Shown one piece after another: positions 7,538 through 46,463 of a stretch of DNA of 64,000 bases. This DNA is from Parcubacteria group bacterium Gr01-1014_8. GTDB lineage: Bacteria > Patescibacteriota > Minisyncoccia > Phycocordibacterales > UBA2100. The stretch is from positions 69,259-133,258 of the forward strand of contig VMGC01000003.1 of the NCBI GenBank assembly GCA_007376385.1. Reading direction: 5' to 3'. Numbering within the stretch: position 1 is the first letter of the stretch; every line of letters starts with the position of its first letter. Both the position numbers and the translations under genes were made by a program. The notes beneath the pieces were generated by a model, which saw only the letters and a list, made by a program, of their open reading frames with translations, ran no database searches and was not told the DNA's origin.

Positions 7538-8775
7538 TCTGCGATCCTCTCTTTCCTGCCGGCGAACTGTTTCGTGTACACAAGCCCTTCTTGATATACT
7601 TGCCGCACATGAAGTTGGCAGTAGTAGCAAGCATCGATAAGACAACGACGCCAAGCAGCAAAGGCGGGATGGAAGTTTGGACCTCCAATTTTGTCTTGGA
7701 AAGTTCGAAGCGAGGCCACCACATAGATCTGTACGCGACGGAGGGTTCGATACACGGTGAACGCGTCCGTCTCATCCCATCCCTGGATCGCCCGCTAAAC
7801 GATTACTTTTCCGACGAATATTTCACTGAAAATCCAGGAGATTTCGACAAGCGCAAGGAGAAATTCATGTCGACCGTCTACGCATCATTGCTCAAAAAAG
7901 TCCGCGATCAGGAAGATGGCTACGACATAATAGTCGATAGCGTCGCGTATCCTTCATTCTCTTTCAATACAAATACATTTCATAAGCCGGTTCTGACGAT
8001 CGGACATTTTCCTGTTGAGTTCATGCTGAAATTTTATGTCAAAACACTTGGCTGGCCGGAAAATAATACCGTAGTCTTTCCTTCTCGGTTCCAGAATGAC
8101 CACGCCACCTTCTTACCTGAATCAAAAAGGCACGTCATTCCTCACGGCATCGATGAGGCATCGCTGACCTTCAGTCCGGAAGGGGGGAGTGGCATGCTCT
8201 GGATGGCGCGAGTACACCATAAATTCATGAACAAGGGTCTCGACGACGCGTTGACGGTCGCGAACACTCTTAAAAGACCGATATATGCCACGGGGTTCAT
8301 TGAACGCTCTTCTCGAGCGTATTTTGATGAGATCATACGCCCGCTCCTCTCAGAGTATGCAACATTCGATGAACAAGGTATGGCAACTCCAATCGATAAA
8401 AGCCACGTGTTCGGAAACGCAAAACTTTTTCTTTTCCCTCTCAAATGGGAAGAAGCATTCGGTTTGGTCATGTTGGAATCGCTTGCCTGCGGGACACCCG
8501 TCGTGGCGTACGCGCGCGGCGCTGTTCCCGAGATAATCGAAGATGGCACCACGGGATTCATCGTAAATTCCAGCGCGGATGATATTCGAGGCGCATTCAC
8601 CATACAAAAAACTGGCCAGGAAGGTCTTTGCGAAGCAGTTGAGCGTATATATGCCATGAGCAAAGCAGACTACGCCGAAATGAGACGAGCTTGCCGTGCC
8701 CGCATCGAGAAATCGTTCACACGTAGAAGAATGTTCGATGGCTACGAACAGCTTTTCACGACGATCACAACTTAA
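7453..8775 (+). CDS. GT4-family glycosyltransferase; likely true start ATG 7609 (MKLAVVAS...)
   Basis: C-terminal GT-B motif FGLVMLESLACGTPVVAYARGAVPEIIEDGTTGF; the ORF-track 5' extension uses TTG and overlaps the GH13 gene in another frame. Confidence 0.8.
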   Translation: MEQRKYDACRPRFAFKQGREMYQAQCCLICDPLFPAGELFRVHKPFLIYLPHMKLAVVASIDKTTTPSSKGGMEVWTSNFVLESSKRGHHIDLYATEGSIHGERVRLIPSLDRPLNDYFSDEYFTENPGDFDKRKEKFMSTVYASLLKKVRDQEDGYDIIVDSVAYPSFSFNTNTFHKPVLTIGHFPVEFMLKFYVKTLGWPENNTVVFPSRFQNDHATFLPESKRHVIPHGIDEASLTFSPEGGSGMLWMARVHHKFMNKGLDDALTVANTLKRPIYATGFIERSSRAYFDEIIRPLLSEYATFDEQGMATPIDKSHVFGNAKLFLFPLKWEEAFGLVMLESLACGTPVVAYARGAVPEIIEDGTTGFIVNSSADDIRGAFTIQKTGQEGLCEAVERIYAMSKADYAEMRRACRARIEKSFTRRRMFDGYEQLFTTITT

Positions 8776-10079
8776 CGTACTTCACCAAGACTGGGGATCG
8801 CAAGACGGCGGCGGGCAGTCCCTCCTTTGAAGAGTTGCGTTGCGCGTTCTGGCAGGTCACCTCGTTCACCAAGATGAGCGCCAAATTTCATTGCCTCGAA
8901 ACTTGAGCCCAAAAACACGACATGCTTCCCGTATTTCTCTGAAAGTTCATCTACGCTTTCGAACACCTGCTTCAAACCCTCCTTTGCATGAACAGCCCCA
9001 AAAAGATCGAGCTGAACCGGAGCGTGTTTCTTTAATTTCATGAGCGTGATGCCGGTTGCACGATAGAACTCTCCTTTTTTGAACACGTTCGGAAAGTATT
9101 CTGCGACTGTTCGCACAATATCCTGCGGCAGATTTGTGTGGTGTGAGAGCTTAATTTCGCATCCATGATATTTGAAATCCTGTGTTTTAAGAAAAAAGAA
9201 GATCTCAAGCGTGGAGAGATCCCATTTGCGCACCTTTATACATGCATTTTCTATATTTTTTGAGAGTTGAGAAAACACGAATTTTTGGTCGCGGGAAGGA
9301 GGCGTAAAAGTTTTCGTCTTGCTGATGGATCGGTATGATTCCTTGCGTTCGGTTGTTATCTCATATGTCATTTCACCTCGCAGCTCGTGCCAGATCTCAA
9401 CATATGGTTTAGAAAGCATCGCTGTTACCCACGTCTCTTCTTTGTTCACGAGATCTTGTATGCTTCTGACCCCGTATTTATTGAGATACTGGGCAGTGTT
9501 CGGTCCAATGCCCCATACAGAGCAAATGGGAAGCTTCTCTAAAAATTTATGTGCATCTCTAAGCGGGATCGCGGTGCATCCGTCCGGCTTCTTCCATTTC
9601 GAGCCGATCTTTGCGAGCACTTTCGTCGCCGAAAGTCCGATCGAGAATGTCATGCCGAGTTCTGTATCAAGTTCGCGTTTTATCTGCAATGCCGTTTCAG
9701 GATAATTCATCTTATTCACGCGGCGCATGCCGGTAATATCAGCAAAGCACTCATCGATTGAATACTCTTCAACTGCCGGCGTATAACGGCGCACGATCTC
9801 ATACATGCGCTCTGAGAAAAGCGAGTACGTTTCGTAATCGGATGGCAAAATGACTGCCTCGGGGCACAATTTTCTTGCTTCTCCTAATTTCATCCCGCGC
9901 TTTACGCCCCGCGCCTTCACGTCGTACGTGCATGCTGAGACGATGCCGCGTTCTTTTCCCGTAATGACTGGTTTCCCTCTCAGACGCGGATCTTTTGCCA
10001 CCTCACATGCTGCGAAAAAAGAATCTCCGTCAATATGAAGAATGGCATGAGGAAAAGAAGCTGAGATCCCCCATGTCAT
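8772..10079 (-). CDS. dinB: Y-family DNA polymerase IV (DinB-like)
   Basis: ILHIDGDSFFAACE N-terminal Y-family motif, palm/fingers/little-finger-length ORF, sits immediately downstream of lexA. Confidence 0.85.
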   Translation of the reverse strand: MTWGISASFPHAILHIDGDSFFAACEVAKDPRLRGKPVITGKERGIVSACTYDVKARGVKRGMKLGEARKLCPEAVILPSDYETYSLFSERMYEIVRRYTPAVEEYSIDECFADITGMRRVNKMNYPETALQIKRELDTELGMTFSIGLSATKVLAKIGSKWKKPDGCTAIPLRDAHKFLEKLPICSVWGIGPNTAQYLNKYGVRSIQDLVNKEETWVTAMLSKPYVEIWHELRGEMTYEITTERKESYRSISKTKTFTPPSRDQKFVFSQLSKNIENACIKVRKWDLSTLEIFFFLKTQDFKYHGCEIKLSHHTNLPQDIVRTVAEYFPNVFKKGEFYRATGITLMKLKKHAPVQLDLFGAVHAKEGLKQVFESVDELSEKYGKHVVFLGSSFEAMKFGAHLGERGDLPERATQLFKGGTARRRLAIPSLGEVR

Positions 10080-10086
10080 ACGCGTA

Positions 10087-10689
10087 TTAATATTTGCGCA
10101 CTACTGCAGTGACCACGGCTTCGATGCGAAACGATTCTTTTGGATAAAGCGCTCGGTAACGCTTATTCGCCGGCTCAAGATAGTATTGTTCTCCTGCCTG
10201 CGCCGCGAAGCCTCGCGTCGCGGCAGGCAGGCCCCGCTTCCGAAGATATTTCATCGTGTACTCGCTATCTATGCACGCAATAACTATTTGCCCCGGCTTG
10301 TAAGCACTCCTGCGCTCGACAATGACCATGTCGCCCGGTTGTATCCCCGCTTCTATCATGGAATCTCCTTTTACTTTCAGAATGTAGCTCATCTCTTTAT
10401 TCGGCGTGAGATATTCATCGAAATTCATCACGTCGAGAAGCTCTTCCTCTGCAGCTGAAGGAAAGCCAGCCTCTACCAACCCGAGCATCTTTACGCCTTC
10501 TTCTAGGTTCTGTGGCAGAAGTTTCCCCGAGCCGTCCTTTGAGATAACACCCTCTTCTATGAGCGCTTCGATGCGGTAGTTGACCGCGCTCTTTGTTTTG
10601 TACCCCCACAACTTCATCAATTCAGAGAATGTGGGCATCCTTTGCCGCGAACGATAAAACCCTGCCAGCTTTTCCTTGAATTTTTCCAT
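10087..10689 (-). CDS. lexA: LexA repressor
   Basis: N-terminal winged-HTH, C-terminal S24 peptidase with GDSM serine motif and catalytic Lys region. Confidence 0.9.
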   Translation of the reverse strand: MEKFKEKLAGFYRSRQRMPTFSELMKLWGYKTKSAVNYRIEALIEEGVISKDGSGKLLPQNLEEGVKMLGLVEAGFPSAAEEELLDVMNFDEYLTPNKEMSYILKVKGDSMIEAGIQPGDMVIVERRSAYKPGQIVIACIDSEYTMKYLRKRGLPAATRGFAAQAGEQYYLEPANKRYRALYPKESFRIEAVVTAVVRKY

Positions 10690-13217: not shown

Positions 13218-15869
13218 CTACCGAGGCCGCGTTCCGGACTCCTTGGCTATGTACGAGGCAAGGCCGCCAGGTCTCGAGTAAGCGTACACGTCTTTTATTC
13301 CCATATCGTGGGCGAGCATCAAAACCATCTCTATCAATTGACTCGAAACCGGTGCATCCGGCGTTATCACGATATCGTCCGAAGGAGTCGGATATTTGAG
13401 AAGCATGTTGTATCCAAGAGAGCTTTCGTCTTCCGGTCTGCTATTAGGAATAACATCAACAAGTGACGCGCCCTCCCTCTGTCCGCCTTTTGGTTTCTTG
13501 TGGAATCGCATGACCGGATCATGCCCGGCATGAAGGTACTTTCGAACCTCCTCGGCATTTAGGGTACGCGTTACTTTTGGGATCGGCTTTTGCTGATAAT
13601 CGGACGAGCAGATAGATATGCAGACGAGAGCATTGCCATGAGGATCGAGAACGGCAGGCGTCAATAATGCATCATAGGTCGTATGCAAGAGTGCGTTGGC
13701 TGAAAGGCTTGTGCGTGCGATCGCTATCTGCCCAAGAAGGTTATCCTTTTCATCAGCGGCAAGAATGACAAGATGCTTCTGTATGTTCTTTTCATACTCG
13801 CTCTTCTCCGGCGAAAGATTGTCCCAGCACTGTCGGTACAACTCATACGAGGGAGCCATCCATCGTGAATATCGGTGAAGAATGGTAAACCGGATTATCG
13901 GTTTCTGGACTCCTCGGCTCGGAGATGTGGAAACTGTGTTTTCCCACCTCCCTCGCTCTACGTCGCCGGTAAAACGACGTGCCGGCATTTTGAGAAGTCC
14001 GAATATTGATTCAAAACGCTCGTAGGGCAATGTCTTCTTCAAAACGCTCCGCTGCACTTTGCCCGTCGACGTCATCGGCAATTCGTCAGCGGAAAAAGAG
14101 GTGAGATACTTCGGCGTCTCATATGCGCTTAAGTACGCCGTGCCGAATAGAAGCGACAACTTGAGCCGACGTTTGGCCTTCTTCTCATCTGTACCCGCTT
14201 TCCAGCAAATGACCGCGCCCGCCTCTTCTCCGTAGCGCTCATCGGGAACAGCAACAACGTACACCTGGTCGATCTCAGGAGATATCTTTTTCAAGGCATT
14301 CTCAAGAGCAACGGGCGAGATGTTAACCCCGCCCTTGATGATGATCTCCCGCTTGCGGCCCTTCAGATAGAAGAATTTCTGCTCGCCAACGACCTTAAAA
14401 TATCCGATGTCGCCCGAGAGAAAATATCCGCCTGCCTGCCGCGTCCGACCAGCGCTATATTCACGTCTTAACCATTTTCGACCAAACCCTGTTTTTAAGT
14501 TTTTCTCCCGCTGTACCGCTTCTTTCAACGATGGAAATTCTTCGTGGTGAATAATTCCTATCGGTTTATGCTTTTTGGTGTGCTCGGCGGCTATACCGTT
14601 ATAATGTTGTCGCCATCGTTCATGTATATCTTGAGTTTGACCGATATAAAATGAACCATCATCACACTTGATGACATAAACATAGAACATTTCTGGTCGC
14701 GGCGCAGGCAGGTCACGGATGGCCGGCTCATTCGTAACATACCCCTCCATAACGGCAGGCCCGCGTATCACCAGTTCACCTTCTTCTCCTTCACCGAGAA
14801 AGTTTCCTTTCTCATCCGATATCTGCACGTCGGCCCATGACATTGCCGAGCCAATAGAATTTTCCTCTATCAGTTTCTCGTATAGACCAGGGGGCAGTCC
14901 CATAGGTACCCCGGTAACGCGAAGCGCTGTTTCAGTCTGCCCATATCCTTGGTAGAGCGGAATATCGAATTTCGTCATGAACTCTTGCATCGTATGCACG
15001 ACCACAGGAGCCGAGCCTATTTGGATGCGATTGAGCCGCAATCCTTTTTTAACGAGCGCGTAACTCTCGGAGCGTCCTACTTGATCGAACAGGATGGATT
15101 GCACTATTGATGTGCAGGTTGCCTGACTTTTCGCAGCCTGCTGCCAGAAATGTGAGTTTGAGTAATTCGGCGTGATCGCAATGCTGCCGCCTGCGAGAAG
15201 CGCCGACAGGCAAAATGTGGTGGAATTTATGTGGTGCAACGGGAGGTTTACCAGAAACCTGTCTTCTTCTGTCATGTGAAGCCATTCCTTGATGCCTTCT
15301 GCGTTCACAACAAGGTTATTGAGAGTCAGTTTTGCTCCTTTTGGATACCCTGTAGTCCCTGATGTAAATAAAATAAGGGCACAATGTGAAAGACCGGATT
15401 CCCAGGCTACCGGTCTATCTGTAATATCGGCAAATCCCGCAAATTCCTGGACTTTGACTTCTTTCAAAAAAATACTCTCAATATTTTTAAGCGCCTCCTT
15501 TTCTGCTATCAATAATGTTGCGTTGTTTATTTTTAATTTGTATTGATACAACTCGCCGGTATCTCGCTTAGTATCGAGTGGAACAGTTACGACTCCGATA
15601 CTCCACGCAGCCCAGCTTATTATGAGGAGTTCGGGCGAATTCTTAAATGCGAGAGCTACTCTATCGCCTCGTTTGATATCAAGCGCGTATAAATAGAGCG
15701 CAGCCTGTTTGATTTTCTGCAGCAATTCTTTGTACGTGATCTCCCCCGAGATCGTTCCTTCGTGATCACACGAGAGGAGCGCGACTTTTCCCGGATTCTT
15801 TTGCGAGAGAGCAGAAATGTGCGAGTAGAGGCTTTGTATGGAAGCATGCTGCATAACAATCATCCTCAA
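13218..15869 (-). CDS. Multidomain AMP-binding (acyl-CoA/acyl-AMP synthetase-like) protein. A ~95-aa GIY-YIG nuclease domain is inserted in-frame, and an uncharacterised ~290-aa C-terminal domain follows
   Basis: LFTSGTTGYPKGA, QGYGQTETA and GYFLSGDIGY adenylation motifs. FYVYVIKCDDGSFYIGQTQDIHERWRQH (UPF0213-type GIY-YIG) lies between the GY.TNEPA and G.F.SGDIGY motifs. Confidence 0.7.
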   Translation of the reverse strand: MRMIVMQHASIQSLYSHISALSQKNPGKVALLSCDHEGTISGEITYKELLQKIKQAALYLYALDIKRGDRVALAFKNSPELLIISWAAWSIGVVTVPLDTKRDTGELYQYKLKINNATLLIAEKEALKNIESIFLKEVKVQEFAGFADITDRPVAWESGLSHCALILFTSGTTGYPKGAKLTLNNLVVNAEGIKEWLHMTEEDRFLVNLPLHHINSTTFCLSALLAGGSIAITPNYSNSHFWQQAAKSQATCTSIVQSILFDQVGRSESYALVKKGLRLNRIQIGSAPVVVHTMQEFMTKFDIPLYQGYGQTETALRVTGVPMGLPPGLYEKLIEENSIGSAMSWADVQISDEKGNFLGEGEEGELVIRGPAVMEGYVTNEPAIRDLPAPRPEMFYVYVIKCDDGSFYIGQTQDIHERWRQHYNGIAAEHTKKHKPIGIIHHEEFPSLKEAVQREKNLKTGFGRKWLRREYSAGRTRQAGGYFLSGDIGYFKVVGEQKFFYLKGRKREIIIKGGVNISPVALENALKKISPEIDQVYVVAVPDERYGEEAGAVICWKAGTDEKKAKRRLKLSLLFGTAYLSAYETPKYLTSFSADELPMTSTGKVQRSVLKKTLPYERFESIFGLLKMPARRFTGDVERGRWENTVSTSPSRGVQKPIIRFTILHRYSRWMAPSYELYRQCWDNLSPEKSEYEKNIQKHLVILAADEKDNLLGQIAIARTSLSANALLHTTYDALLTPAVLDPHGNALVCISICSSDYQQKPIPKVTRTLNAEEVRKYLHAGHDPVMRFHKKPKGGQREGASLVDVIPNSRPEDESSLGYNMLLKYPTPSDDIVITPDAPVSSQLIEMVLMLAHDMGIKDVYAYSRPGGLASYIAKESGTRPR

Positions 15870-23214: not shown

Positions 23215-23826
23215 CTATTCAAGAATCCCGTCCAGGTTCACATCGTACAAAATTTCTTCATGAATGATGCGATAGTTCGTCAATTCCTCCGGTTTGAACC
23301 AATGAGCTATCTCCACGTTCGCCTCCTCAACCGAGCCAGAAGCGTGGGCAAGGTTTCGGACGGCACGCCCGTCTTCATCCGCCATCTGGTATGAATCCAG
23401 GACGAAATCGCCTCGAATCGAGCCAACGTCTGATGTCAGCGGCTCTGTGCCTCCCGTCAGCTTCCGTACTATCTTAACGGCGTGAGCTCCTTGCAAGACC
23501 ATCGCAACAACAGGTCCCGAGGAAAGATACTTCTTTAAGTTTGTAAGAATTTTCGCGGTAATTTCAAGTGGGTCCTGTGAAGGAGGTGTCATCCCCTTGT
23601 CCAAATACCCCTTGATGGTCTTTTCTCCCGTGACCTTTCTCCAGTTTGGATCGAGCGTGTAGTGCGTTTCGACATGCTCTGGTGTTGGCACCATCATTTT
23701 CATGCCGACGAGCTTTAAGCCCGAAGACTCGTAGCGATTGATTATCTCTCCTATCAAAGAGCGTTGAACCGCATCTGGCTTAATAACAACGAGCGTGCGT
23801 TCTTTGCTGTGATGGTCTTGCGGCAT
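23215..23826 (-). CDS. ndk: Nucleoside diphosphate kinase (long form with ~50-aa insertion)
   Basis: ERTLVVIKPDAVQR...NLAHASGSVEEANVEIAHWF (active-site His region). Confidence 0.85.
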   Translation of the reverse strand: MPQDHHSKERTLVVIKPDAVQRSLIGEIINRYESSGLKLVGMKMMVPTPEHVETHYTLDPNWRKVTGEKTIKGYLDKGMTPPSQDPLEITAKILTNLKKYLSSGPVVAMVLQGAHAVKIVRKLTGGTEPLTSDVGSIRGDFVLDSYQMADEDGRAVRNLAHASGSVEEANVEIAHWFKPEELTNYRIIHEEILYDVNLDGILE

Positions 23827-23845: not shown

Positions 23846-26671
23846 TTAGTAGGACGGCATCAAAGGATCTGCATACGGACTGCTCTGCGCTGCTTGATCA
23901 CCTGCATATTTCTTTTTTATCTCGTCTTCAACTTCCTTGCGATCCCTGCCGTACGTACGATACGAAAGTTCTTTCAGCGCGTCAACTGGAGTGTAATCTA
24001 AAGATGGCATCTTCACTGTCTTGATAGTAAATGGTCTCGCGGGCACCCCGTTCACAAGAAGTGCGACGCTTGCGTGGTAGTTCTGTTGATTCTCGAGGTC
24101 ATGCCGCGTAAACACAGGATGGAATTGTTTTTCAAGGAATTCCGCGTCGGTCGTACCGATGCGAAAGACCATTTTTGTACCGACGTTACCGATAACAGCA
24201 TCTCGTATTTTCTCTTCGAGCTGTGCAATGAATTGGTGCGCAATTGTCAGCGAGAGTTTGTATTTACGAGCTTCGGAAAGGATGGTCCCTATGGACGGCG
24301 TCGCGAAGTTTTGGAATTCGTCGATATAAAGATAGAAAACCGGAAGGTCTGCAGATTTCGCATCAACGCGTGAAAATGCCGCTTGCAGGAACTTTGATAC
24401 GAGAACAAGACCAAGAAGCGACGTATTCCTATCGCCAAGCCTGCCTTTCGAGAGGTTCGCGAGAAATATTTTCTTTCCATCAAGGATCTCCCGGAAATCG
24501 AACGCAGATTTTTCTTGCGCTACGATCGGACGCATGATGTCGTTGGCGAGGAAAACGTCGAATTTGCTGGTAATGTACGGTGCGACGTTCTCAAGCGATG
24601 GATCTCCTCCCGCTTTTTCCGCGATGCCTCTCCAGAATTGGACGATAACGGGGTTGGGACACCGTGAAAGTTTCAAATTCCGGAATCCTGGATCTGCAAA
24701 GATGCGTGGGATCTCGAGGAATGTTGAGCCGGAATCCGGGTCTTCGACAACGAGCTGCACCGCATTTCGGTAGTACTGCTCGAACATTGGACCGAATGCT
24801 TCAGGCACATCGGCGTACAGCTTTCGGAAGATTCCGTACACCTCGTCCACGACAAATGTTTTCATTTCCGGCTTGTTGCGGTCATATTCAAGCATATTTA
24901 GTCCCATCGGCCGTGCCGTATGCGCAGGATCGAAATAGATGACATCTTTCGCCCGCTCTGGCGGAACCGATGCAAGAATATCCTCAATATCGGTGCCATG
25001 CGGGTCTATGTAGGCAACGCCGTCGCCATTTTTCATGTCCTGCATGATCATATTCTTCAGAAGCGACGTTTTGCCCGTACCTGTTTGCCCTATGACGTAA
25101 CAATGACGCAGCCGATCCGCAGTGCCGTATTTCACCTCCCTCTCTTCTGCGCCGTAATGGTTGATACCAACGACTATGCCATCTTCCGGCATCTCAACAG
25201 GGGAAGGCGCTTGTTTTGCGTATGATTTCTTCAACTCGCGCGACGTCGTGACACGTTGTGCTGTGAAGTGGAACATTGATGTAATTTCCGATAACGAGAG
25301 AGGTATCGCGTACGAATCGTTATGAACACGATATGTAAAATCGCGCAGGAACCCGGACAAGTTCCAGCGCGATATGCGATTGAATATCAAGTGATTGCCC
25401 CGCGGGTCATCAAGTTGATTGAAAGGCGCTTCGAGATTCTTGAGAAGATCCGTCGCTCTCTCTTCCGTAGGGGCAGACGCAACAATACGAACGACTGTAG
25501 GAGCGATGCGGCTTTTTATCTTGCGCCCGAATTCTTCATTCGCAACTTGGTCTGGATTTCGTCTGAATGTGCGGTCTTTTTCTTCTTTTATGTAGTTCTC
25601 CGATTTAAAAGAAACCTCTGCTATTTCTTTAATGGTATCTAGAAAGTAACTCTCCGGGGTCTTCAGAGCTTTGTGCAAGATCTTCCCTCTCTCCAGCTTC
25701 CGGATTATCCGCTTATAGTGCTCGTTGTAGCGGTCGCCGTCATTTCCAACGACTATTTGAACCGCAGCACCTTCACCGTGCTTCGCAATCTTCGCGAATG
25801 CCGCAAGCATGACGTTCATTGGGTCATGTTCGAACATTTCGGGCGTTTTAAGCGGATACGCCGGGTGCTGCATCTGCGTGGCATATGCCGCAGCATGATA
25901 GCCTTCATAATTAAAAATGTTGTAATCTCCGCGGCATTCGCTGATGAGCGCATTGGGAAAGACAGAAGAAAGAAGACGCTCGGCAAGGGCCTGCCGCGCA
26001 CGCGGTACGGCAAGGTAGAGTGTCGCTTCTTCCGTACCCTCACCGACGGCTATCTCAAGAGAAAATCCTTCATTTTTGCCAAGCAAGGGAAGAAGCCCCG
26101 CATACAACTGTTCCGACGATGAAAGCACTTGTTCCAATTTTTGCTGCTGCTCACTTTCCTTCGTGCCCTCGCTATGCGCCTGAGGATGTATCTCAAAGAG
26201 TACGAGGTGCAACGCTTTGATTATCTTCTCTGGCGGTTTTGCGCCCTTTTGCGGAAGTCCCTGCGCAATGTACCGTATCAGTGCGCGATGAAGGTCATCC
26301 TCCAGATGCACATTTTTCATTTTAGCGACGATGGTGAGTGCATTTCTGACGCCGTGCTGCTCAACTATCTTCAGGAGTTCATCTATCTGGGTGTCGTGGG
26401 TTTCCGGTTCGAGTTGGAGTGCCTTTCGCATTGCTTCGTACTCGGGCATGACAACTGCCTCGTGTAGCACTGATGCGGCGGGAGTTGCCGCATACTCCGC
26501 GACTTCACGTTTTGCGATGCGTTCTTGTTCTGCAATGTTACCGGCTGTTTCGAGTTCTTGCTCTTTTTCTTTCACTTTACCCCGCAAATAAGCAAGCTCC
26601 TCTTCTGGAGTATGGAATTTTTTTGGAGCGGCCACACGCAACCGCTCTCCTACCGCAGAGTGAGGAGACAT
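23846..26671 (-). CDS. Large P-loop NTPase of the TraD/VirD4/TrwB (T4SS coupling-protein-like; FtsK-HerA superfamily) type with a ~480-aa unknown N-terminal region
   Basis: Walker A VIGQTGTGKTS, then YIDPHGTDIED...YFDPAHTARPMGLNML (TraD/VirD4-like), Walker B hhhhDE (FYLYIDEFQNF). Confidence 0.5.
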   Translation of the reverse strand: MSPHSAVGERLRVAAPKKFHTPEEELAYLRGKVKEKEQELETAGNIAEQERIAKREVAEYAATPAASVLHEAVVMPEYEAMRKALQLEPETHDTQIDELLKIVEQHGVRNALTIVAKMKNVHLEDDLHRALIRYIAQGLPQKGAKPPEKIIKALHLVLFEIHPQAHSEGTKESEQQQKLEQVLSSSEQLYAGLLPLLGKNEGFSLEIAVGEGTEEATLYLAVPRARQALAERLLSSVFPNALISECRGDYNIFNYEGYHAAAYATQMQHPAYPLKTPEMFEHDPMNVMLAAFAKIAKHGEGAAVQIVVGNDGDRYNEHYKRIIRKLERGKILHKALKTPESYFLDTIKEIAEVSFKSENYIKEEKDRTFRRNPDQVANEEFGRKIKSRIAPTVVRIVASAPTEERATDLLKNLEAPFNQLDDPRGNHLIFNRISRWNLSGFLRDFTYRVHNDSYAIPLSLSEITSMFHFTAQRVTTSRELKKSYAKQAPSPVEMPEDGIVVGINHYGAEEREVKYGTADRLRHCYVIGQTGTGKTSLLKNMIMQDMKNGDGVAYIDPHGTDIEDILASVPPERAKDVIYFDPAHTARPMGLNMLEYDRNKPEMKTFVVDEVYGIFRKLYADVPEAFGPMFEQYYRNAVQLVVEDPDSGSTFLEIPRIFADPGFRNLKLSRCPNPVIVQFWRGIAEKAGGDPSLENVAPYITSKFDVFLANDIMRPIVAQEKSAFDFREILDGKKIFLANLSKGRLGDRNTSLLGLVLVSKFLQAAFSRVDAKSADLPVFYLYIDEFQNFATPSIGTILSEARKYKLSLTIAHQFIAQLEEKIRDAVIGNVGTKMVFRIGTTDAEFLEKQFHPVFTRHDLENQQNYHASVALLVNGVPARPFTIKTVKMPSLDYTPVDALKELSYRTYGRDRKEVEDEIKKKYAGDQAAQSSPYADPLMPSY

Positions 26672-26759: not shown

Positions 26760-28043
26760 TCATCCAGTTCTTAGTGCTTTCGCCCCTATGTCGCGCCGGA
26801 AATATTTCCCTTCGAATTGAATACGCTCGCACGCTTGATACGCCGCATTAAGTGCTTCCTTCAGAGTTCCGCCCACTGCCGAAACGCTTAAGACACGTCC
26901 TCCACTTGTGAGAGTCTGTCCATTCTCGTACCTGGTCCCCGCGTGAAATACGACCACTCCCTCAATTTTTTCTGCTTCTTCTATGCCGGCGATGGGAAGA
27001 TCTCTCTTATACGCGTCCGGATACCCGCCCGAAGCCATGATGACCGTAACGGCAAATCCAGGTTGCCACTCGATATTCTTTTTTGAAATTGTTCCGTCAA
27101 CACTCGCTTCAAGCAGGTCTAGAAGATCCGTTTTGAGAAGACGCATATACACTTCTGCTTCGGGACATCCGAACCTTGAATTGAATTCAATGACTTTCGG
27201 CCCCTGTTTCGTCATCATCAAGCCCGGATAGAGGAGCCCCTGGAACGGCGTGTCCCGTTTTGCCATGGTTGCAATGGCTGGAGCAACTATATGTTTCCTG
27301 ATATCCAATAACTGTTCATCGGTAACCCACGGCACGGGTGCGATGGCGCCCATTCCTCCAGTATTCTTGCCCGTATCGTTTTCTCCGATAGTTTTGTGGT
27401 CTTGCGACGTAGGAAACATAATAAAATCTTTTCCATCAGAAAGTGCGTGAATTGAAATTTCTGGTCCCTCAAGAAATTCTTCGATAACAACCTCGTTTCC
27501 GGAATCTTTGAAGATCTTTTTAACCATGACTTCGTTCAAGAAATTCTCCGCTTCCGCAACCGTCCTGCACACCATAACTCCTTTTCCGAGTGCAAGACCG
27601 CTTGCTTTTACAACGATTGGCGCACCTTTTTCGTGCACGTATCGGAGGGCGTCAACATGAGCCGTGAATACTCTGAATTCTGCTGTTGGAATATTCGCTT
27701 GACGCATTAATTCCTTCGCGAACGCTTTCGAACCTTCGAGCTTTGCAGCAACTTTTGAGGGACTCCAAATTCTAAGTCCGTGAGCCCTAAAAGCATCACC
27801 AATGCCCCCCACGATCGGGTCATCTGAGCCAGCAACGGTTAAGCCCACCTTCTTTTCTTCCGCAAACGCAACGAGTTTATCGAATTCCATCACGCCGATA
27901 GAAATCGGCTCGCCAACTGCATGTGTTCCTCCGTTTCCTGGTGCAATGTAAATCTTCCCAACGCGAGATAATTGTTTCAACTTCCATGCGATAGCGTGTT
28001 CCCTCGAATATGCCCCGACGACGAGAATATCGATGCTCATCAA
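26760..28043 (-). CDS. purD: Phosphoribosylamine-glycine ligase
   Basis: MSIDILVVGAYSREHAIAWKL N-terminus, ATP-grasp fold length and motifs. Confidence 0.9.
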   Translation of the reverse strand: MMSIDILVVGAYSREHAIAWKLKQLSRVGKIYIAPGNGGTHAVGEPISIGVMEFDKLVAFAEEKKVGLTVAGSDDPIVGGIGDAFRAHGLRIWSPSKVAAKLEGSKAFAKELMRQANIPTAEFRVFTAHVDALRYVHEKGAPIVVKASGLALGKGVMVCRTVAEAENFLNEVMVKKIFKDSGNEVVIEEFLEGPEISIHALSDGKDFIMFPTSQDHKTIGENDTGKNTGGMGAIAPVPWVTDEQLLDIRKHIVAPAIATMAKRDTPFQGLLYPGLMMTKQGPKVIEFNSRFGCPEAEVYMRLLKTDLLDLLEASVDGTISKKNIEWQPGFAVTVIMASGGYPDAYKRDLPIAGIEEAEKIEGVVVFHAGTRYENGQTLTSGGRVLSVSAVGGTLKEALNAAYQACERIQFEGKYFRRDIGAKALRTG

Positions 28044-28074: not shown

Positions 28075-28332
28075 CTAAGTTTGGTCTTGGCGACTTTCGG
28101 AAAGACGTTGCCTAAGCTTCGATTTAGCATATCCGCGATATTTTAACTGATGTTCGCGCCGACGTGCATCACCTTCAGCACGATAGGCTTCGTAATATAT
28201 CAAGGTCCACTTATGTTTTCGCGTAAATTTTGACTTTCCCTTAATATGCTCAGAAAGTCGCCGCCTCAGATCGTTTGTCGAACCTACGTACAGCAAACCG
28301 TCCTGATTTTCCAGAACATATACGTAATGCAT
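28075..28332 (-). CDS. Standalone GIY-YIG nuclease-domain protein (UPF0213/YhbQ-like)
   Basis: HYVYVLENQDGLLYVGSTNDLRRRLSEH. Confidence 0.8.
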   Translation of the reverse strand: MHYVYVLENQDGLLYVGSTNDLRRRLSEHIKGKSKFTRKHKWTLIYYEAYRAEGDARRREHQLKYRGYAKSKLRQRLSESRQDQT

Positions 28333-40449: not shown

Positions 40450-41058
40450 TTAGCCTCGGATCTCAACCAGCGTGCCGGGCCTTCCTGGCACGGCACCTGA
40501 GATAACAAGAGTATTGGATCCAGCATCAACCTGCAAAACACGCAGATTCCTCACGGTTATTCGATCGCCTCCCATGCGGCCGGCCATTCGCATCCCTTTC
40601 ACCACGCGTCCGCCGGCACGACCGCCGCCTCCGATTGAACCCGGAGAACGCTCTTTGTTTTTTTGACCGTGCGAGCGAGGGCCTCCCTTAAAACCGTGCC
40701 TCTTCACGACACCTTGAAAACCCTTTCCTTTTGATATCGCGGACACTTCAACAATATCGCCCGGTGCAAACACTGAGACATTTATTGTCGCGCCCCTTTC
40801 CATTGTTTCCGCTCCTTTAAATTCTCGGGCGTATCGGAAATTTCCGAGATCTTTGAAGTGCCCTTGTACCGCCTTGCTCAGATTCTTCTGTTTCCGGTCG
40901 CCGAAGCCAAATTGCACGGCCGCGTAGCCATCCTTTTCAACACTTTTAGCCTGAGTCACTGTGAGTGGCCCAGCAGTAATGATGGTCGCAGCAGCAACTG
41001 CGCCATCTTCATTGAAGATCTGGGTCATTCGACCCTTAGTTCCGAGCATGAATTTCAT
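40450..41058 (-). CDS. rplC: 50S ribosomal protein L3
   Basis: MKFMLGTKGRMTQIFNEDG. Confidence 0.95.
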   Translation of the reverse strand: MKFMLGTKGRMTQIFNEDGAVAAATIITAGPLTVTQAKSVEKDGYAAVQFGFGDRKQKNLSKAVQGHFKDLGNFRYAREFKGAETMERGATINVSVFAPGDIVEVSAISKGKGFQGVVKRHGFKGGPRSHGQKNKERSPGSIGGGGRAGGRVVKGMRMAGRMGGDRITVRNLRVLQVDAGSNTLVISGAVPGRPGTLVEIRG

Positions 41059-41170
41059 GTTAGAGATTCTTAGCGAGTTACTACGAGCTTAGAAGCTCTT
41101 ACACCCTGTTAAATGCAACTCTTCCGAGGTTGCCCCGCCTCTGGCGGGATTTAACAGGGTTGTGAAAACT
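41059..41170. repeat. Structured intergenic repeat, copy C (5' leader immediately upstream of rplC start; lacks the 5' module of copies A/B)
   Basis: ACACCCTGTTAAAT-[two hairpins incl. CCCGCCTCTGGCGGG]-ATTTAACAGGGTTG plus conserved 3' module ...CGAGCTTAGAAGC...CTAACATG. Confidence 0.75.
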
Positions 41171-41321
41171 ATAGTCGTCCTCGCTTCGCTTCGACCCCTT
41201 AGTTTTCAACAAAAAACCGCGCCACTGGCGCGGATGGTTCATCCGAGTCCAGTGGTCCCGTATTGGGACATGGGTGACCCGTGAGATGGCGGCCTTGCGG
41301 CCTATCTCATGGGTTCGCGGC

Positions 41322-41350
41322 ACTATACACCCCATGAGATAACAAGTCAA
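41322..41350 (-). promoter_or_regulatory. Candidate sigma-70-type promoter of the rplC-led operon (TTGACT-17-TATAGT)
   Basis: Minus-strand TTGACTTGTTATCTCATGGGGTGTATAGT; predicts a ~255-nt structured leader containing repeat copy C. Confidence 0.5.
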
Positions 41351-41414
41351 AAACTTCTCGTACAGAACAGATTTTCTATCTCACGGGGTACACGAGGAGT
41401 GTACGGGATGCAAA

Positions 41415-41849
41415 CTAACTTGTTGCAGGGGGATTGTCGGCAGCGGACGCCAGCGAAGCGTTTTCCTTTCTGTGATGAATATCGTAGAGATGTTTCAAGA
41501 GCACCATGGTAAGCGCCAACGAGACCAAAATGACGCCATATAACGCAGGCATGGACAGCTGTCCTATCGGTCCTGCGGATGACTGGAAGCTGGAAGGAAC
41601 AAACGTTTGTTCCGGAAGGAAATCTTCCGCGACTCCCTGTTTCTCTGCTTCGCCTGCAAGCGACTCAACTAAAACGGCAAGTTCGCTCTCAGATAGTTCG
41701 CTTGAACGCGGATCACTCAATAAAGATGCGCGTATTTCATCGCGAAGCAGTACTGAATCATCCGCTTGCGCAAAAACACTTATCGGGAGAACGAGCGCTC
41801 CTGCAAACAAAATCACTAGTGCAGTTTTTTTAATTGAATGCACGTTCAT
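41415..41849 (-). CDS. Hypothetical exported protein (signal peptide plus C-terminal TM anchor)
   Basis: MNVHSIKKTALVILFAGALVLPISVFA signal-like N-terminus; hydrophobic C-terminal segment followed by HHRKE. Confidence 0.45.
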   Translation of the reverse strand: MNVHSIKKTALVILFAGALVLPISVFAQADDSVLLRDEIRASLLSDPRSSELSESELAVLVESLAGEAEKQGVAEDFLPEQTFVPSSFQSSAGPIGQLSMPALYGVILVSLALTMVLLKHLYDIHHRKENASLASAADNPPATS

Positions 41850-41853
41850 ACGT

Positions 41854-42876
41854 CTAGAGTTCTTGGAAAATCGGGATAATGTTCACCGTCGCGGTCGGCT
41901 TTGGCAGAAATACCCCGCCGCTCGACTTCGTGCAGGAGAGTGTGTAGGTGGTCTGCGTAGAAATAGCGCTTGAAGTCTGCGTCCCAGACGTGCCTGACCA
42001 CGCATCGGTTATGTCGGGGTTATCCTCGGTGACTGTGCACGATGTTATGCCGGAGCTAATCCAGCTAACCTCTGTGGTCTCGCCTGCTCTGATGAGTGAT
42101 GGAGATACAGCGATGTCGGCCGCAGATGCGTCTCCTCCGCCAGAGAGACATGCGCCATTTGCACATCCATATGCGCACGCTTGTTCAAACTGATTCGAGC
42201 ACGTAGGAGGGTTTACTCTTCTGTAGAGGTCATTGCCTACGCACGTGAACTGCGGGCTGCATGCGGCATTAACAGTTACGGTTACATTACATGACCATGA
42301 CTCCGTTTGTACCAAGGCATCCCCGCTCTGTACCGACGAACGCGTACCTGTAAGCGTGTAGGTCGTACTTTGTGTCGGTGTGACCGACCACGAACCTGCC
42401 CACGCAACACCGCCAGGCGTTGGCGAGAGCGTTCGGGTCCATGGGTTAATGGGATCCGTTTCTGAACTCCACGAAAGATTGGATACTTGGCCGGATGCTA
42501 CTGTTAACGGCGACGCATATATGACACATCCGGAGCTTGGCTGTATCGGCGTATCGCAATCGCCGCTCTGATGGGGATTTGACGGACATGAGGCGGGAAC
42601 GATGCGTAACCCCGATCCGCTGTATTCCGTAAAACGAGTTTCTGAAGAAACTATGCCATCCTGCATTTGCAAAGCCCCGCTGAATTGAAAGACAGCTATC
42701 GAGAGCATACCGAACAATATTGCCCAATATGTGCGCGTAGATATGCCGCGCAAAATCTTCTCTGCAGAAAGCAACCGCATAACCCGTTCTGTACATTGTC
42801 CTATAGACACACGAGAGAAACAATGCGGTGCCTGTGCATAATTGTCCGCATACCTTTTTACAATCTCCTTCCGCAC
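41854..42876 (-). CDS. Hypothetical Cys-rich, Ser/Thr-rich surface protein (N-terminal TM)
   Basis: TM segment YWAILFGMLSIAVFQF; ~20 Cys; T/S-rich C-terminal half. Confidence 0.45.
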   Translation of the reverse strand: MRKEIVKRYADNYAQAPHCFSRVSIGQCTERVMRLLSAEKILRGISTRTYWAILFGMLSIAVFQFSGALQMQDGIVSSETRFTEYSGSGLRIVPASCPSNPHQSGDCDTPIQPSSGCVIYASPLTVASGQVSNLSWSSETDPINPWTRTLSPTPGGVAWAGSWSVTPTQSTTYTLTGTRSSVQSGDALVQTESWSCNVTVTVNAACSPQFTCVGNDLYRRVNPPTCSNQFEQACAYGCANGACLSGGGDASAADIAVSPSLIRAGETTEVSWISSGITSCTVTEDNPDITDAWSGTSGTQTSSAISTQTTYTLSCTKSSGGVFLPKPTATVNIIPIFQEL

Positions 42877-43724
42877 ATGGCCCGGGAAACAACGTCTGTT
42901 TTGGAGACATCCATAATGGAACCAGTCTGTATACTGCGCATATTCTCCCGCAGAGAATCCTGCAATGCGTATACGCCCTCCGGTGCAATACGGGGATCAT
43001 TTCCAGGATAGGCTGTCAGCCAATCTTTTTCTGTGATGGCCATCGCCGCTTTCACTGCATCCCGCGCTTTCTTCAGGGCAGCTTCCTTTTCGCCAAGTTC
43101 AAACAGCGCGATCGAATGCGAACTAAGAAGCCAGGGATTTTCCGGAAAAAGCTGGAGGCCATGTTCCGTCGCCGCACGTGCGTCGCGAGGGCAATTGCTT
43201 TTAAGCAGGACCCACGCGTAATCATTTAATCCAGCCCAATTTGACGGCTCCCGAGACAAGTAGAGTTCGTAATCTCTCGCGGCAGCCTCATAATCAGTCA
43301 TGAAACCCTCGATAAGGCCTCGCACGTAATAGGAATTCGCCTGTGCATCGCCGTGCTCGGAGATCTCGATAGTTATGTGAGCCAGCGCGGTTGCAAAATC
43401 ACTTCTCAAAAAATAGATCCGTGCAAGTTCGTGATGCACGTATGGAAAATGGGGCATGATAAAGGCGGCTTTTTTCAGATACGTCTCGGCTTTTTTAATG
43501 CTGTATGCATCGTCGCGTGTATTGAGAAAATACGAACCCATTTCATACAGAAGTTTCGGGTCATTAGGTGCGAGCATTCGTGCAGACTCAAGATGGATGC
43601 CCTCCCACAGCGCGTGCGCGAGAGCCGTGCGATAAAAGAAGATGAGCCCCGCAACAAACAACACCGACAAGGACGCGGCGACGATCAGCTTTGCCGATCT
43701 TGCCTTCCACATGCCGTGCATCAC
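42858..43724 (-). CDS. Membrane-anchored TPR-repeat protein
   Basis: N-terminal TM plus tetratricopeptide-like repeats (A..Y...A..Y helices repeated). Confidence 0.55.
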   Translation of the reverse strand: MMHGMWKARSAKLIVAASLSVLFVAGLIFFYRTALAHALWEGIHLESARMLAPNDPKLLYEMGSYFLNTRDDAYSIKKAETYLKKAAFIMPHFPYVHHELARIYFLRSDFATALAHITIEISEHGDAQANSYYVRGLIEGFMTDYEAAARDYELYLSREPSNWAGLNDYAWVLLKSNCPRDARAATEHGLQLFPENPWLLSSHSIALFELGEKEAALKKARDAVKAAMAITEKDWLTAYPGNDPRIAPEGVYALQDSLRENMRSIQTGSIMDVSKTDVVSRAMCGRRL

Positions 43725-44863
43725 TTGCTTATCTCACCGTATTTTATGAGAAACTCCTTGAAGTTCGGATTGAGTTCTGAGAGGTCAATGTAGCCTTTGT
43801 AGTAGCGCTCCCAATCAGCCTTTGAGCGCGCTCCCCCCTCGCGCAAAAAAGCAAGATAGTAGCCCTGGTGGACTGCTGGATCCTTCTCGACGAGCGTCAT
43901 GAGCGCATTCAGATACTTGTTGATCTCGGCTTTTGCGTCCGTACCCTGCACATCGTACAGCGCAAGTGCATAGTTGAAATATGTATACGGAAGACGCGAC
44001 GCGATAAGCGGAATGGGGGCTCCTTTCTCATCCCGCGTGGTCTCATTCAATTTCACCAATGCATCCAAGGCTATTTTAGCGTCCTCAAGATACTCCGGCT
44101 GTACCCTCGCCATCACTCCATAGAGATATGATTTCCAAAAGAGGAACCGGGGCTCAACCATATACTCGAACGGCCTTCCCTCGACGGTCTTCAATTCTTG
44201 GGGAAGCAAGGCATCCGCAGATGCTATGACCTTCGCTATTTCCCCCGCGTATTCCTTTTTTTGAGCTGGCGTCGCGTTCCAGTCTCCATATAAATTCCGG
44301 ATCCTGTCCGTATACCACTGACCTATGCGAAATTGAGCCTCCGTTGTCGGATACAAGGATATGGAATATTCCGCAAGATTGCGTATCGAGGTAGCCGCGT
44401 CATCTTGGACAAGGAAACTTTGGAACGGTTCGCCGACAAATACTTCATCAAATACGAATGGTTCAAATGCCGCGTTGATATAACCGAGTAATTTGTTCAC
44501 CTGGAGAGCTTTCTCATAGTTTGTTTTGCTGAGCGTATAGGTCTCCTTTGTCAGCTGTACCGCTTCAATGCGCTTGCGAGCATCGCCGCTCATGAATTTA
44601 CCGGTATCAACTACAGAACGCGCAACAAAATTTGGCTCCGATGAACCCCGCATGACCAGCTCCGCCTGTGCGACCGCCTCATCAGATCTCCCCTGCGCTG
44701 CAAGATGCAAAGCAGTGTCCGTCATTTTCTTTTGTTCTTCTTCGCTTAAGCCGCCTCGCAATAAAAAAAGGTCCGGGCGAAAGACATACAAAGCCGCCGT
44801 CGAAAGAACTGCCGCAACAAGAAGTATAAGAACGATGATCCCCCGTATGTTTGTTCCAGTCAT
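43721..44863 (-). CDS. Hypothetical membrane-anchored protein, possibly TPR-like helical repeats
   Basis: N-terminal TM IIVLILLVAAVLSTAALYV; alpha-helical repeat-rich. Confidence 0.4.
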   Translation of the reverse strand: MTGTNIRGIIVLILLVAAVLSTAALYVFRPDLFLLRGGLSEEEQKKMTDTALHLAAQGRSDEAVAQAELVMRGSSEPNFVARSVVDTGKFMSGDARKRIEAVQLTKETYTLSKTNYEKALQVNKLLGYINAAFEPFVFDEVFVGEPFQSFLVQDDAATSIRNLAEYSISLYPTTEAQFRIGQWYTDRIRNLYGDWNATPAQKKEYAGEIAKVIASADALLPQELKTVEGRPFEYMVEPRFLFWKSYLYGVMARVQPEYLEDAKIALDALVKLNETTRDEKGAPIPLIASRLPYTYFNYALALYDVQGTDAKAEINKYLNALMTLVEKDPAVHQGYYLAFLREGGARSKADWERYYKGYIDLSELNPNFKEFLIKYGEISK

Positions 44864-44868
44864 AGAGA

Positions 44869-45195
44869 TTATTTTCCCCCGCTGCCTCCGCTTCCTCCGG
44901 CACAGCCATCACAACAATCACCTGCGCCAGCGTCACCTGCATCACCTGCATCACCTGCGCAGCCTCCACACCCACCGTCGCTGCAACCATCCGACGTGCA
45001 ACTCGAACAACTCGAACAACTGCCCGGGGCATCGGCGCGCGCCACATCAGAATTTCCTAAAACTCGCTCGCCGCCTCCCCCTCCAAATACGCGCGGCGCA
45101 ATGACAGTAAGAAGCACGATGACAGCACCGAGGAACAGTAACCCCGCATTCCGGATCGCCTTATATCCTCGCTGGGAGATGCGTACAATAGCCAT
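44869..45195 (-). CDS. Small protein with one TM helix and a Gly/Ser/Cys/Asp-rich C-terminal core; candidate RiPP precursor
   Basis: Core SCSSCSSCTSDGCSDGGCGGCAGDAGDAGDAGAGDCCDGCAGGSGGSGGK resembles microcin-B17/TOMM-type cores; lies in the island with YcaO and SagB-type genes. Confidence 0.5.
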   Translation of the reverse strand: MAIVRISQRGYKAIRNAGLLFLGAVIVLLTVIAPRVFGGGGGERVLGNSDVARADAPGSCSSCSSCTSDGCSDGGCGGCAGDAGDAGDAGAGDCCDGCAGGSGGSGGK

Positions 45196-45269
45196 AGCGA
45201 AAGTATATCAGTACACAGCACAATATCCGCGCCTTATGTGGATATGTACTTCCACCCTATCTCGCCCTG

Positions 45270-46463
45270 CTATTTTTGTATCCAATCATTGGTTTGAAAG
45301 ATCGAAAAATCCAAAGCGCATACATTCGCTGTCTCGATAACCCGATGCAGAGGCTCGTGCGCAAACGATAGATCGAGCGACCAGAAGATTTCCCGTATGG
45401 GCGGCTCGCCCCGGCACAGCGCTTTGAGTTCGAACCAGCGTGTATACGGGCTACAGCGACAAGGACGATTTTGCCATGCACCTTTTATAACCTTCTCGGT
45501 CCCGTCCTCGTACCGTACCGTCGCAAGCGATACGCCGCTCGTGGCCGGAAAGTAAGTCGCAATGCCGAGATGAGGCCTCGCAAATGTAAAACTTCGGCTA
45601 TGGAGCGCAAAGATGATCCATGCGTGCATCATCAATAGACCTAGACAGATGATGGCCATGCGCCATATGTAGGTGCCACTGGGTTTTTTTGCAGGCACGT
45701 CGAACCAAAAAAGCGCGGGCAAGATCGGCACGATAAGCAACATGTAGTATTGTTCAAAGACAACGCCTGCATACACATGGAACGCTACAAAGACGCTCAG
45801 TACGCCTCTGCGATACCGCGCGTCTTTAGAAAGGAGGTACCACACGCCGATCCACTGCAGAGCAAACGCTCCATGTACGAACCATAATTCGACGCCTGCA
45901 GGAATGAGCGGCATATCCTTCGGCAGGCCATCCAAGATATACGCGCGATAAAATTCTGTGACACCGCCAAGTACATACAGAAAGACAACAAGAGCACGCG
46001 CTGTCCATTCCTTGCATGCGGCAAATAACAGCACCGCTGACAGCAGGAGGTGCAGGTATGAGTACGCTTCGCCGGCTTCATATGAGAGAACGAGGAGAAA
46101 AAAAGCTTCCCACAACCAAGTCAGAAGAAAGATGCCGTGTGCCGCGAGCCATCGACCCCTGATCGCCGCAAATAAAGCAACCGTTTGCAGAATGAACAGG
46201 AAGCCATACAGCGCCGTCTGCGAATAACCGTATTGTTTTAAATTTAGGAAATACCATTCACCGCATTGCTGAAAAAACGGCCAGCATGTATACACGTTGC
46301 TTTGGTATGCCTGAACGGTGCCCGCATCATCGCCGACAAACGTTGCGAAGAGGAACATCTGATACGCGAGCGCAATGAAAAATAAGATGCGCGCGTTTTC
46401 GGAAGGCAAAAATTCGCTCAAAGAGAAAAACTTCTGGTAGGAATCACGGAGGCGCTCCAACAT
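45270..46463 (-). CDS. Polytopic integral membrane protein (8-10 TM); family unassigned (HTTM/SdpB-like is one possibility)
   Basis: Multiple hydrophobic helices rich in W/Y/F; first gene of a minus-strand operon that includes the Cys-rich peptide. Confidence 0.4.
   Translation of the reverse strand: MLERLRDSYQKFFSLSEFLPSENARILFFIALAYQMFLFATFVGDDAGTVQAYQSNVYTCWPFFQQCGEWYFLNLKQYGYSQTALYGFLFILQTVALFAAIRGRWLAAHGIFLLTWLWEAFFLLVLSYEAGEAYSYLHLLLSAVLLFAACKEWTARALVVFLYVLGGVTEFYRAYILDGLPKDMPLIPAGVELWFVHGAFALQWIGVWYLLSKDARYRRGVLSVFVAFHVYAGVVFEQYYMLLIVPILPALFWFDVPAKKPSGTYIWRMAIICLGLLMMHAWIIFALHSRSFTFARPHLGIATYFPATSGVSLATVRYEDGTEKVIKGAWQNRPCRCSPYTRWFELKALCRGEPPIREIFWSLDLSFAHEPLHRVIETANVCALDFSIFQTNDWIQK

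Follow-up and report, generated by a model that had tools for sequence, protein, structure and literature searches.

What can a coupling-protein-type ATPase do in a chromosome in which no conjugation gene stands beside it? This question is raised by a gene of Parcubacteria group bacterium Gr01-1014_8, located at positions 23846..26671 on the reverse strand of a 64,000-nucleotide (nt) stretch of contig VMGC01000003.1 (positions 69,259 to 133,258; hereafter the window). The gene is an uninterrupted open reading frame (ORF) from ATG to stop encoding 941 amino acids (aa). Sequence comparisons placed the protein in the lineage of type IV coupling proteins (T4CPs), and we found that it carries, in front of its motor, an N-terminal domain (NTD) with the fold of the VirB4 NTD and a helical module homologous to a small stand-alone protein, and that it belongs to a core gene family of Parcubacteria. 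Patescibacteria have an essential, relaxase-less type IV secretion system (T4SS), and this near-universal T4CP-type ATPase is a candidate for its missing substrate gate or for an unrecognised core function. We tentatively favour the former reading, in which the protein may be the trans-encoded coupling or substrate-gating ATPase of that chromosomal T4SS, at somewhat less than an even chance. The features of the gene are as follows.

23846..26671, reverse strand: whole coding sequence; T4CP-lineage ATPase of the DUF8128 + TraG-D_C family, named 'TraM recognition domain-containing protein' by NCBI
26237..26671, reverse strand: helical N-terminal module, aa 1-145, with helices at 22-136 in the model; homologous to a stand-alone protein of about 140 aa
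25181..26236, reverse strand: DUF8128 region, aa 146-497; alpha/beta domain folded like the NTD of VirB4 (TrwK)
23897..25180, reverse strand: RecA-like motor (nucleotide-binding) domain of VirB4/VirD4 type, aa 498-925
25067..25090, reverse strand: Walker A, GQTGTGKT, aa 528-535
24989..25006, reverse strand: DPHGTD box, aa 556-561, aligning with DPNGD of TrwB
24479..24874, reverse strand: insertion composed entirely of helices, lying between the two Walker motifs, aa ~600-731, from the secondary structure of the model
24317..24334, reverse strand: Walker B, YLYIDE, aa 780-785
24221..24277, reverse strand: SEARKYKLSLTIAHQFIAQ, aa 799-817, aligning to the RK...Q...Q motif of TrwB

Sequence profiles support a place in the coupling-protein lineage

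An earlier note, made from the sequence alone, had described a 941-aa TraD/VirD4-like ATPase with a Walker A motif, a DPHG(T/E)D box and a Walker B motif in this order, and all three were indeed located in that order within the intact ORF. Among 63 homologues, the most distant of which share about 30% identity, residues G528/G531/G533/K534, D556/P557/G559, D784/E785, E800/R802/K803 and Q813/Q817 were invariant, indicating that the motifs are functional signatures and not chance occurrences. All catalytic residues are intact and the protein is predicted to be an active P-loop enzyme, in which the region of E800/R802/K803 and Q813/Q817 may provide an arginine finger or a sensor.

The Pfam models TraG-D_C (PF12696; 31.7 bits against a cut-off of 22) and TrwB_AAD_bind (PF10412; 25.3 against 20.5) were both passed, while PF02534 remained below threshold (16.0 against 20.1). 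When the family profile was compared with PDB sequences, TrwB (1.6e-6) and DotL (3.3e-6) ranked ahead of HerA (2.5e-3). The Pfam models DUF87 (HerA) and FtsK_SpoIIIE were both under their cut-offs on the 941-aa protein, and the marks of the HerA and FtsK-SpoIIIE groups, namely their family profiles, a HAS-barrel with a NurA partner and a multi-transmembrane N-terminus with a gamma domain, were not found. These results support membership in the VirD4/TraD/TrwB coupling-protein lineage rather than in HerA or FtsK; best matches to HerA or FtsK without TraD motifs, which the earlier note had named as the outcome that would speak against it, were not obtained. The TraD/VirD4-like identity itself stands in part. 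It is upheld by the T4CP Pfam domains and by TrwB and DotL as top PDB matches, but the protein is not a canonical TraD or VirD4, since it has no transmembrane (TM) segment, carries an additional NTD and fails the NCBIfam cut-offs. The TraD/VirD4 cut-offs of NCBIfam were missed about seven-fold or more (best SXT_TraD, 53.7 against 366), and CD1115 (40.4 against 250), TOL TraD (34.7 against 648) and F-type TraD (16.7 against 521) were likewise below theirs.

In the comparison of motor folds, the C-domain of DptH scored 28.8, TrwB 27.7 (364 of 420 residues aligned) and HerA 26.2, followed by the lower matches DotL (23.8), Cagbeta (21.9) and FtsK (18.0). By fold, the motor is thus equally VirB4-like and VirD4-like. 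From its position and helical content, the insert at aa ~600-731 could be the counterpart of the all-alpha domain of T4CPs; a helical insert is present at the matching place in the C-terminal domain (CTD) of VirB4 as well, and this feature hence does not discriminate between the two.

A VirB4-like N-terminal domain is shared with plasmid-borne relatives

The domain with the VirB4-NTD fold spans 350 aa and is additional to the canonical T4CP layout. A Pfam scan of the isolated N-terminal 500 aa gave no match. A precomputed match to DUF8128 (PF26449) exists for the 941-aa protein, and full-length collinear homology places it in the Patescibacteria family that combines DUF8128 with TraG-D_C. A VirB4-type NTD and a RecA-like CTD, the two domains of the VirB4 fold, were both present, yet the protein failed the sequence models of VirB4: AAA_10 (PF12846) reached 12.6 against 27.5, TIGR00929 25.6 against 643, and PF03135 was absent. 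A literature search on DUF8128 found nothing, and one on 'TraM recognition domain-containing protein' found nothing relevant.

Beyond the family, the motor finds its nearest relatives in proteins of 43-46% identity that lack a TM helix and differ in their N-terminal region. One of them, 46% identical and Patescibacteria-like, matches the Pfam family T4SS-DNA_transf; its mobile-element-like locus has Replic_Relax two genes away and, close by, an antitoxin, an HTH_17 gene and a DUF87 ATPase. Apart from a short motif preceding the motor, no homology to DUF8128 was detected in the NTD of mobile-element T4CPs of the P0219 type.

The best full-architecture homologue in annotated plasmids was a 'DUF87 domain-containing protein' on Bacillus plasmids of about 25 kb (B. 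subtilis; e.g. WP_121549396.1, NZ_CP032854.1), with a BLASTP E-value of 4e-33 over query aa 197-884 and a match of the DUF8128 profile to its NTD at a probability of 99.3% (E 3e-20). Its gene is directly upstream of Replic_Relax, and TcpC, TcpE, an AAA_10 VirB4 and a 784-aa 'conjugal transfer protein' follow; in this Tcp-like conjugation locus, the homologue takes the position of the coupling protein. Between the AAA_10 VirB4 of the same plasmid and the query, blastp and hhalign found nothing. The Bacillus protein, which is uncharacterised, has the same collinear two-domain architecture and likewise no TM helix, but it is 22% identical, plasmid-borne beside Replic_Relax and without the N-terminal adaptor module. 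A homologue on pCLK of C. botulinum (NTD probability 98.1%) comes after a TrbC/VirB2 gene, and the same two-domain architecture was found in phrog_5156 (function unknown) and in gp156 of Bacillus phage G. Of 25 matches in viral contigs of IMG/VR, 24 cover little or none of the NTD. The mobile-element and plasmid relatives indicate a monoderm T4CP as ancestor of the family, of a type in which a VirB4-like NTD was already present. With its VirB4-type NTD on a T4CP-type motor, the family could conceivably be a surviving VirB4-VirD4 intermediate, and it bears on the divergence of VirB4 and VirD4.

In Kaiserbacteria the ATPase is fused to a small partner protein

Orthologues outside Kaiserbacteria are shorter (~780-850 aa). 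Nearly all of the N-terminally complete short forms have one TM helix (Kyte-Doolittle 2.0-3.7) just before the first conserved strand of DUF8128, whereas this helix is missing in all 22 long-form loci. Consistently, no TM segment was predicted in the 941-aa protein, whose maximum Kyte-Doolittle mean over 19 residues is 1.37.

In 34 of the loci compared, an ORF of about 140 aa directly precedes the ATPase gene on its strand, in many cases with a gap of -4 to +8 nt. This small partner has a conserved C-terminal motif, ...G..A...A....P..LDaFHDaL..LY..L..rG. In the window protein, the motif in its shorter form, ...G..A...A....P..LD.FHD.L, reads HGVRNALTIVAKMKNVHLEDDLHRALI. Profile-profile alignment by hhalign of the partner with the N-terminus of the Kaiserbacteria proteins (residues up to ~145; aa 20-145 of the window protein) gave a probability of 97.3% (E 2e-11) over 121 columns. 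This N-terminal homology demonstrates that the 941-aa protein is a partner-ATPase fusion whose N-terminal module takes the place of the membrane helix. At least 808 stand-alone relatives of the partner were found; none is annotated and none has a Pfam domain. No Pfam family matched the small-partner proteins, and the partner profile found nothing significant among PDB sequences. The partner is not claimed to be universal, because small ORFs at other loci are not homologous to it: a second family of upstream small ORFs (cluster 13, eight Uhrbacteria-like loci) and the 148-aa ORF that precedes the gene of a 2006-aa homologue showed no detectable homology to the partner family. In Helicobacter pylori, the T4CP Cagbeta is paired with CagZ, a small helical regulator, and by analogy the partner may act as an adaptor or regulator; no sequence relationship of the partner to CagZ was found, and no search aimed at one was made. 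In the literature searched, no mention was met of the VirB4-like NTD, of the partner family or of the exchange of TM helix for partner in Kaiserbacteria.

The gene belongs to the vertically inherited core of Parcubacteria

Close relatives of the protein at 70-86% identity form more than 120 full-length clusters under the names of Candidatus Kaiserbacteria (Parcubacteria, candidate phyla radiation (CPR)/Patescibacteria), the group to which the source organism is assigned, and their number confirms that the gene is real. The 120 clusters listed have 96-100% coverage and most of them carry PF26449 together with PF12696. Across bacteria and archaea, with one genome taken per species, the family occupies at least 569 loci; the lineages include Kaiser-, Lipton-, Moran-, Portnoy-, Uhr- and Yanofskybacteria, with identity of about 40% across query aa ~150-921, and a search of 1.84 billion 50%-identity representatives gave 5,041 matches at E<=1e-30. 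In Kaiserbacteria loci, identity to the window copy is 63-74% for the ATPase, 50-67% for purD, 54-66% for map, 39-59% for adk, 47-57% for gmk and 72-81% for secY; the ATPase is more conserved than purD, map, adk and gmk and slightly less than secY. The order purD-X-ndk recurs in these loci, and base composition at the ATPase gene is native (GC about 0.49-0.50). These levels of identity, together with synteny and composition, indicate purifying selection at housekeeping level and vertical inheritance, and not the cargo of a mobile element.

The gene stands downstream of a same-strand array, rpl/rps (spc operon)-secY-gmk-adk-map-GIY-YIG-purD, and its immediate neighbours, both on its strand, are the following.

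26760..28043, reverse strand: purD, upstream neighbour after a gap of 88 nt; syntenic in Kaiserbacteria loci
23215..23826, reverse strand: ndk, downstream neighbour, starting 19 nt past the ATPase stop

The housekeeping setting between ndk and purD that had been noted before was thus confirmed. The ndk and ATPase genes are probably co-transcribed; a scan for promoters and terminators around the ATPase gene gave no excess over shuffled expectation and is hence silent on operon structure. The window also matches positions 26648-90647 of a 90.7-kb metagenomic contig (ENA ERZ27284378 k139_135950). No relaxase, VirB4, VirB6, VirB8 or pilin family was present in the Pfam annotation of the called genes of the window and of about 10 kb beyond its low end, in agreement with the orphan status that the earlier note had assigned, although about a dozen window genes have no Pfam match at all and divergent T4SS components could be among them. 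Across 80 related loci, no T4SS gene was a recurrent neighbour, and VirB2, VirB3, VirB6 or VirB8 were not found beside the gene.

The gene is not an oddity of one genome: it is a core gene of Parcubacteria, and orphan T4CP homologues in Patescibacteria have already been published. A census of Patescibacteria (Quinonero-Coronel et al. 2025, PMC12102498) counted 5,713 VirD4-type T4CP homologues in 2,918 of 3,035 genomes (96%), 148 of them near virB4, and a separate, canonical VirB4 in 2,417 genomes, often near dnaA/dnaN. Relaxases were rare and the T4SS usually lacked a cis-encoded T4CP; in Ca. S. epibionticum the T4CP homologue was non-essential and the T4SS genes were essential; and the authors concluded that exaptation of T4CPs in Patescibacteria 'cannot be ruled out' (PMC12102498). 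An essential T4SS without recognisable coupling and relaxase proteins had been described before (Wang et al. 2023, PMC10633639). The gene class and, at census level, its orphan status are therefore known, and the DUF8128 family is presumably among the homologues counted. Beyond that census of hidden Markov model matches, our analysis adds the VirB4-like NTD, a dedicated small partner without a Pfam family and the soluble, fused version of Kaiserbacteria.

Several observations concern the loci of the wider family. Short-form genes have a GtrA-like membrane protein at +1 in 12 loci and dnaX at +2 in 11 loci, and large polytopic membrane proteins without a Pfam match lie upstream on the opposite strand (17 + 9 loci; for example at L028:12424-14122 and L068:2812-4380). 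From their sequences we suspect the polytopic neighbours to be GT-C-type glycosyltransferases, and the neighbourhood may reflect nothing more than synteny or else a connection with the cell envelope. Directly downstream of one family member, L036:12461-14560 encodes a 699-aa MORN-repeat protein with a weak match to T4SS_pilin (PF18895, 21.4 bits against a cut-off of 26.6); this sub-threshold match is the sole hint of a T4SS-type neighbour among the 80 loci. A paralogous family was also seen in Parcubacteria. At L036:18049-20955 it is a fused protein of 968 aa with a DUF8128-like NTD (probability 100%) and a motor 37% identical, and at L028:824-3639 it is split into an NTD-only ORF of 423 aa (probability 99.9%) that overlaps by 4 nt with a motor of 515 aa ending in a C-terminal treble-clef zinc finger. 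Both paralogues adjoin HARE-HTH proteins, and that of L036 also sigma-70 region 4. Some homologues, among them P0164 (2006 aa) and P0166 (1584 aa; see also locus L085:10001-16021), have Pro/Ala/Gly-rich low-complexity C-terminal tails of 800-1200 aa, which end in a conserved GEV(F/Y)VDERGNVI(I/V)GE. P0166 has a clear N-terminal TM helix, and the surroundings of P0164 are chromosomal, with pheST and gyrBA nearby.

Proposed role and alternatives

In our tentative reading, the ATPase would be a chromosomally fixed, vertically inherited descendant of monoderm conjugation T4CPs, built from a helical adaptor module (aa 1-145), a VirB4-NTD-like domain (aa 146-497) and a motor with its helical insert (aa 498-925). 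It would form a ring, probably a hexamer, that translocates or recruits substrates at the expense of ATP, and it would act at the membrane through its NTD and its partner. In most Parcubacteria, the ATPase would be tethered by its single N-terminal membrane helix and work with the small soluble partner encoded just upstream; in Kaiserbacteria, where the partner is fused to the N-terminus and the helix lost, docking to the membrane would go through protein partners. Acting in trans, the ATPase might hand DNA or protein substrates to a T4SS-like channel encoded elsewhere, and plasmid conjugation would not be its task. A role in DNA uptake or pilus-associated transport, which the earlier note had suspected, is conjectural.

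Characterised T4CPs (VirD4, TrwB, TraD, DotL) have a two-helix membrane anchor, in contrast to one helix in the orthologues and none in the protein of the window, which moreover adds the VirB4-NTD-like domain of 350 aa and is encoded by a chromosomal core gene without adjacent relaxase or T4SS genes. In the literature, the closest functional analogue of the DUF8128 ATPase is, to judge from its organisation, CedD of the crenarchaeal Ced DNA import system. CedD likewise combines a VirB4/HerA-like motor with a TM helix and with an NTD that reportedly superposes on that of VirB4; its gene is chromosomal and apart from the cedAB channel genes, and it is needed only for DNA import, which is non-conjugative. 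CedD and CedB differ in being archaeal, and the match is weak and at P-loop level (NF053655, 21 bits against a cut-off of 600), with no evidence of orthology.

The alternative that survives best is a housekeeping motor independent of any T4SS, in which a domesticated T4CP and its small partner would serve as a translocase of nucleic acids or proteins in DNA uptake, scavenging or chromosome handling. Such a motor would fit the housekeeping-level constraint on the gene and its place within the ribosomal/secY/adk/map/purD/ndk array, as well as dnaX, gyrBA and pheST as neighbours in other lineages; the DUF8128-type family is also commoner than VirB4, the Kaiserbacteria form is predicted to be soluble, and the sole conserved partner is a small protein and no T4SS gene. 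On the other hand, no DNA-binding domain was detected, the gene neighbourhoods are variable and a poor guide to function, and the characterised relatives all act with a membrane channel. Saccharibacteria possess FtsK according to transcriptome papers, so that a missing segregation motor is not evident, and the idea that the ATPase replaces FtsK was dropped for this reason. We consider this alternative unlikely. Its most far-reaching form, that the ATPase and the partner of about 140 aa constitute a new two-component machine, near-universal in Parcubacteria, in which a conjugation motor has been exapted to a core process such as the uptake or handling of host-derived nucleic acids, and which in Kaiserbacteria would be a soluble single chain, seems to us a rather long shot. 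The TM-less fused protein of Kaiserbacteria is well suited to biochemistry and cryo-electron microscopy.

It is improbable, in our estimate, that the protein is a second VirB4-like ATPase that assembles or energises the channel and is not its substrate receptor, pairing with the canonical VirB4 as proposed for CedD-CedB. The AAA_10 and TIGR00929 models fail; the VirB4 of the Bacillus plasmid is dissimilar, yet the protein in the T4CP slot of that plasmid is clearly homologous; and the small partner is soluble, unlike VirB3. VirB4 proteins (TrwK of R388 and VirB4 of T. pseudethanolicus) differ from the protein of the window in sequence models, and VirB2, VirB3, VirB6 and VirB8 are not its neighbours. 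That the gene is left over from, or carried by, an integrated conjugative element or prophage, or that it encodes a defence ATPase like HerA or DptH, is very improbable given the conserved synteny without integrase, relaxase or defence partner nearby, the native GC and housekeeping-level constraint, the viral-contig matches that in 24 of 25 cases spare most or all of the NTD, and PADLOC matches limited to the P-loop motor. The defence-system and prophage readings were rejected on grounds of synteny, composition and conservation.

Other features of the window

Elsewhere in the window, the ribosomal genes are interrupted. The gene for S10, rpsJ (~57610-57981, reverse strand), is parted from rplC (~40450-41058, reverse strand) by an insert of about 16.5 kb (window ~41100-57600), which contains six genes without a Pfam match (one with a faint TPR), a PQQ-like beta-propeller (46462-48171), YcaO (48217-49644), a nitroreductase (49647-50375), two CapK_C/AMP-binding-like genes (50923-53564) and two large proteins without a Pfam match (421 and 899 aa). 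The pair of YcaO and a nitroreductase-type dehydrogenase suggests an azol(in)e cluster of the type that makes ribosomally synthesised and post-translationally modified peptides, inside the ribosomal super-operon. Between tuf (62387-63586) and rpsJ, the segment 58000-62300 has a low GC of 0.41-0.45 and encodes a RusA endodeoxyribonuclease (59844-60296) as well as a 255-aa ORF whose sole match, to CTLH, is weak; it may be a small phage-derived insertion. A free-standing GIY-YIG ORF of 85 aa lies at 28075-28332 between map and purD, and an AMP-binding enzyme of 881 aa at 13218-15869 has an internal GIY-YIG domain; both may be insertions of homing endonucleases. At 8772-10689, a Peptidase_S24 gene (LexA/UmuD-like, 200 aa) immediately precedes the gene of a Y-family polymerase (IMS, 435 aa), and the two are a umuDC-like pair in a reduced CPR genome.

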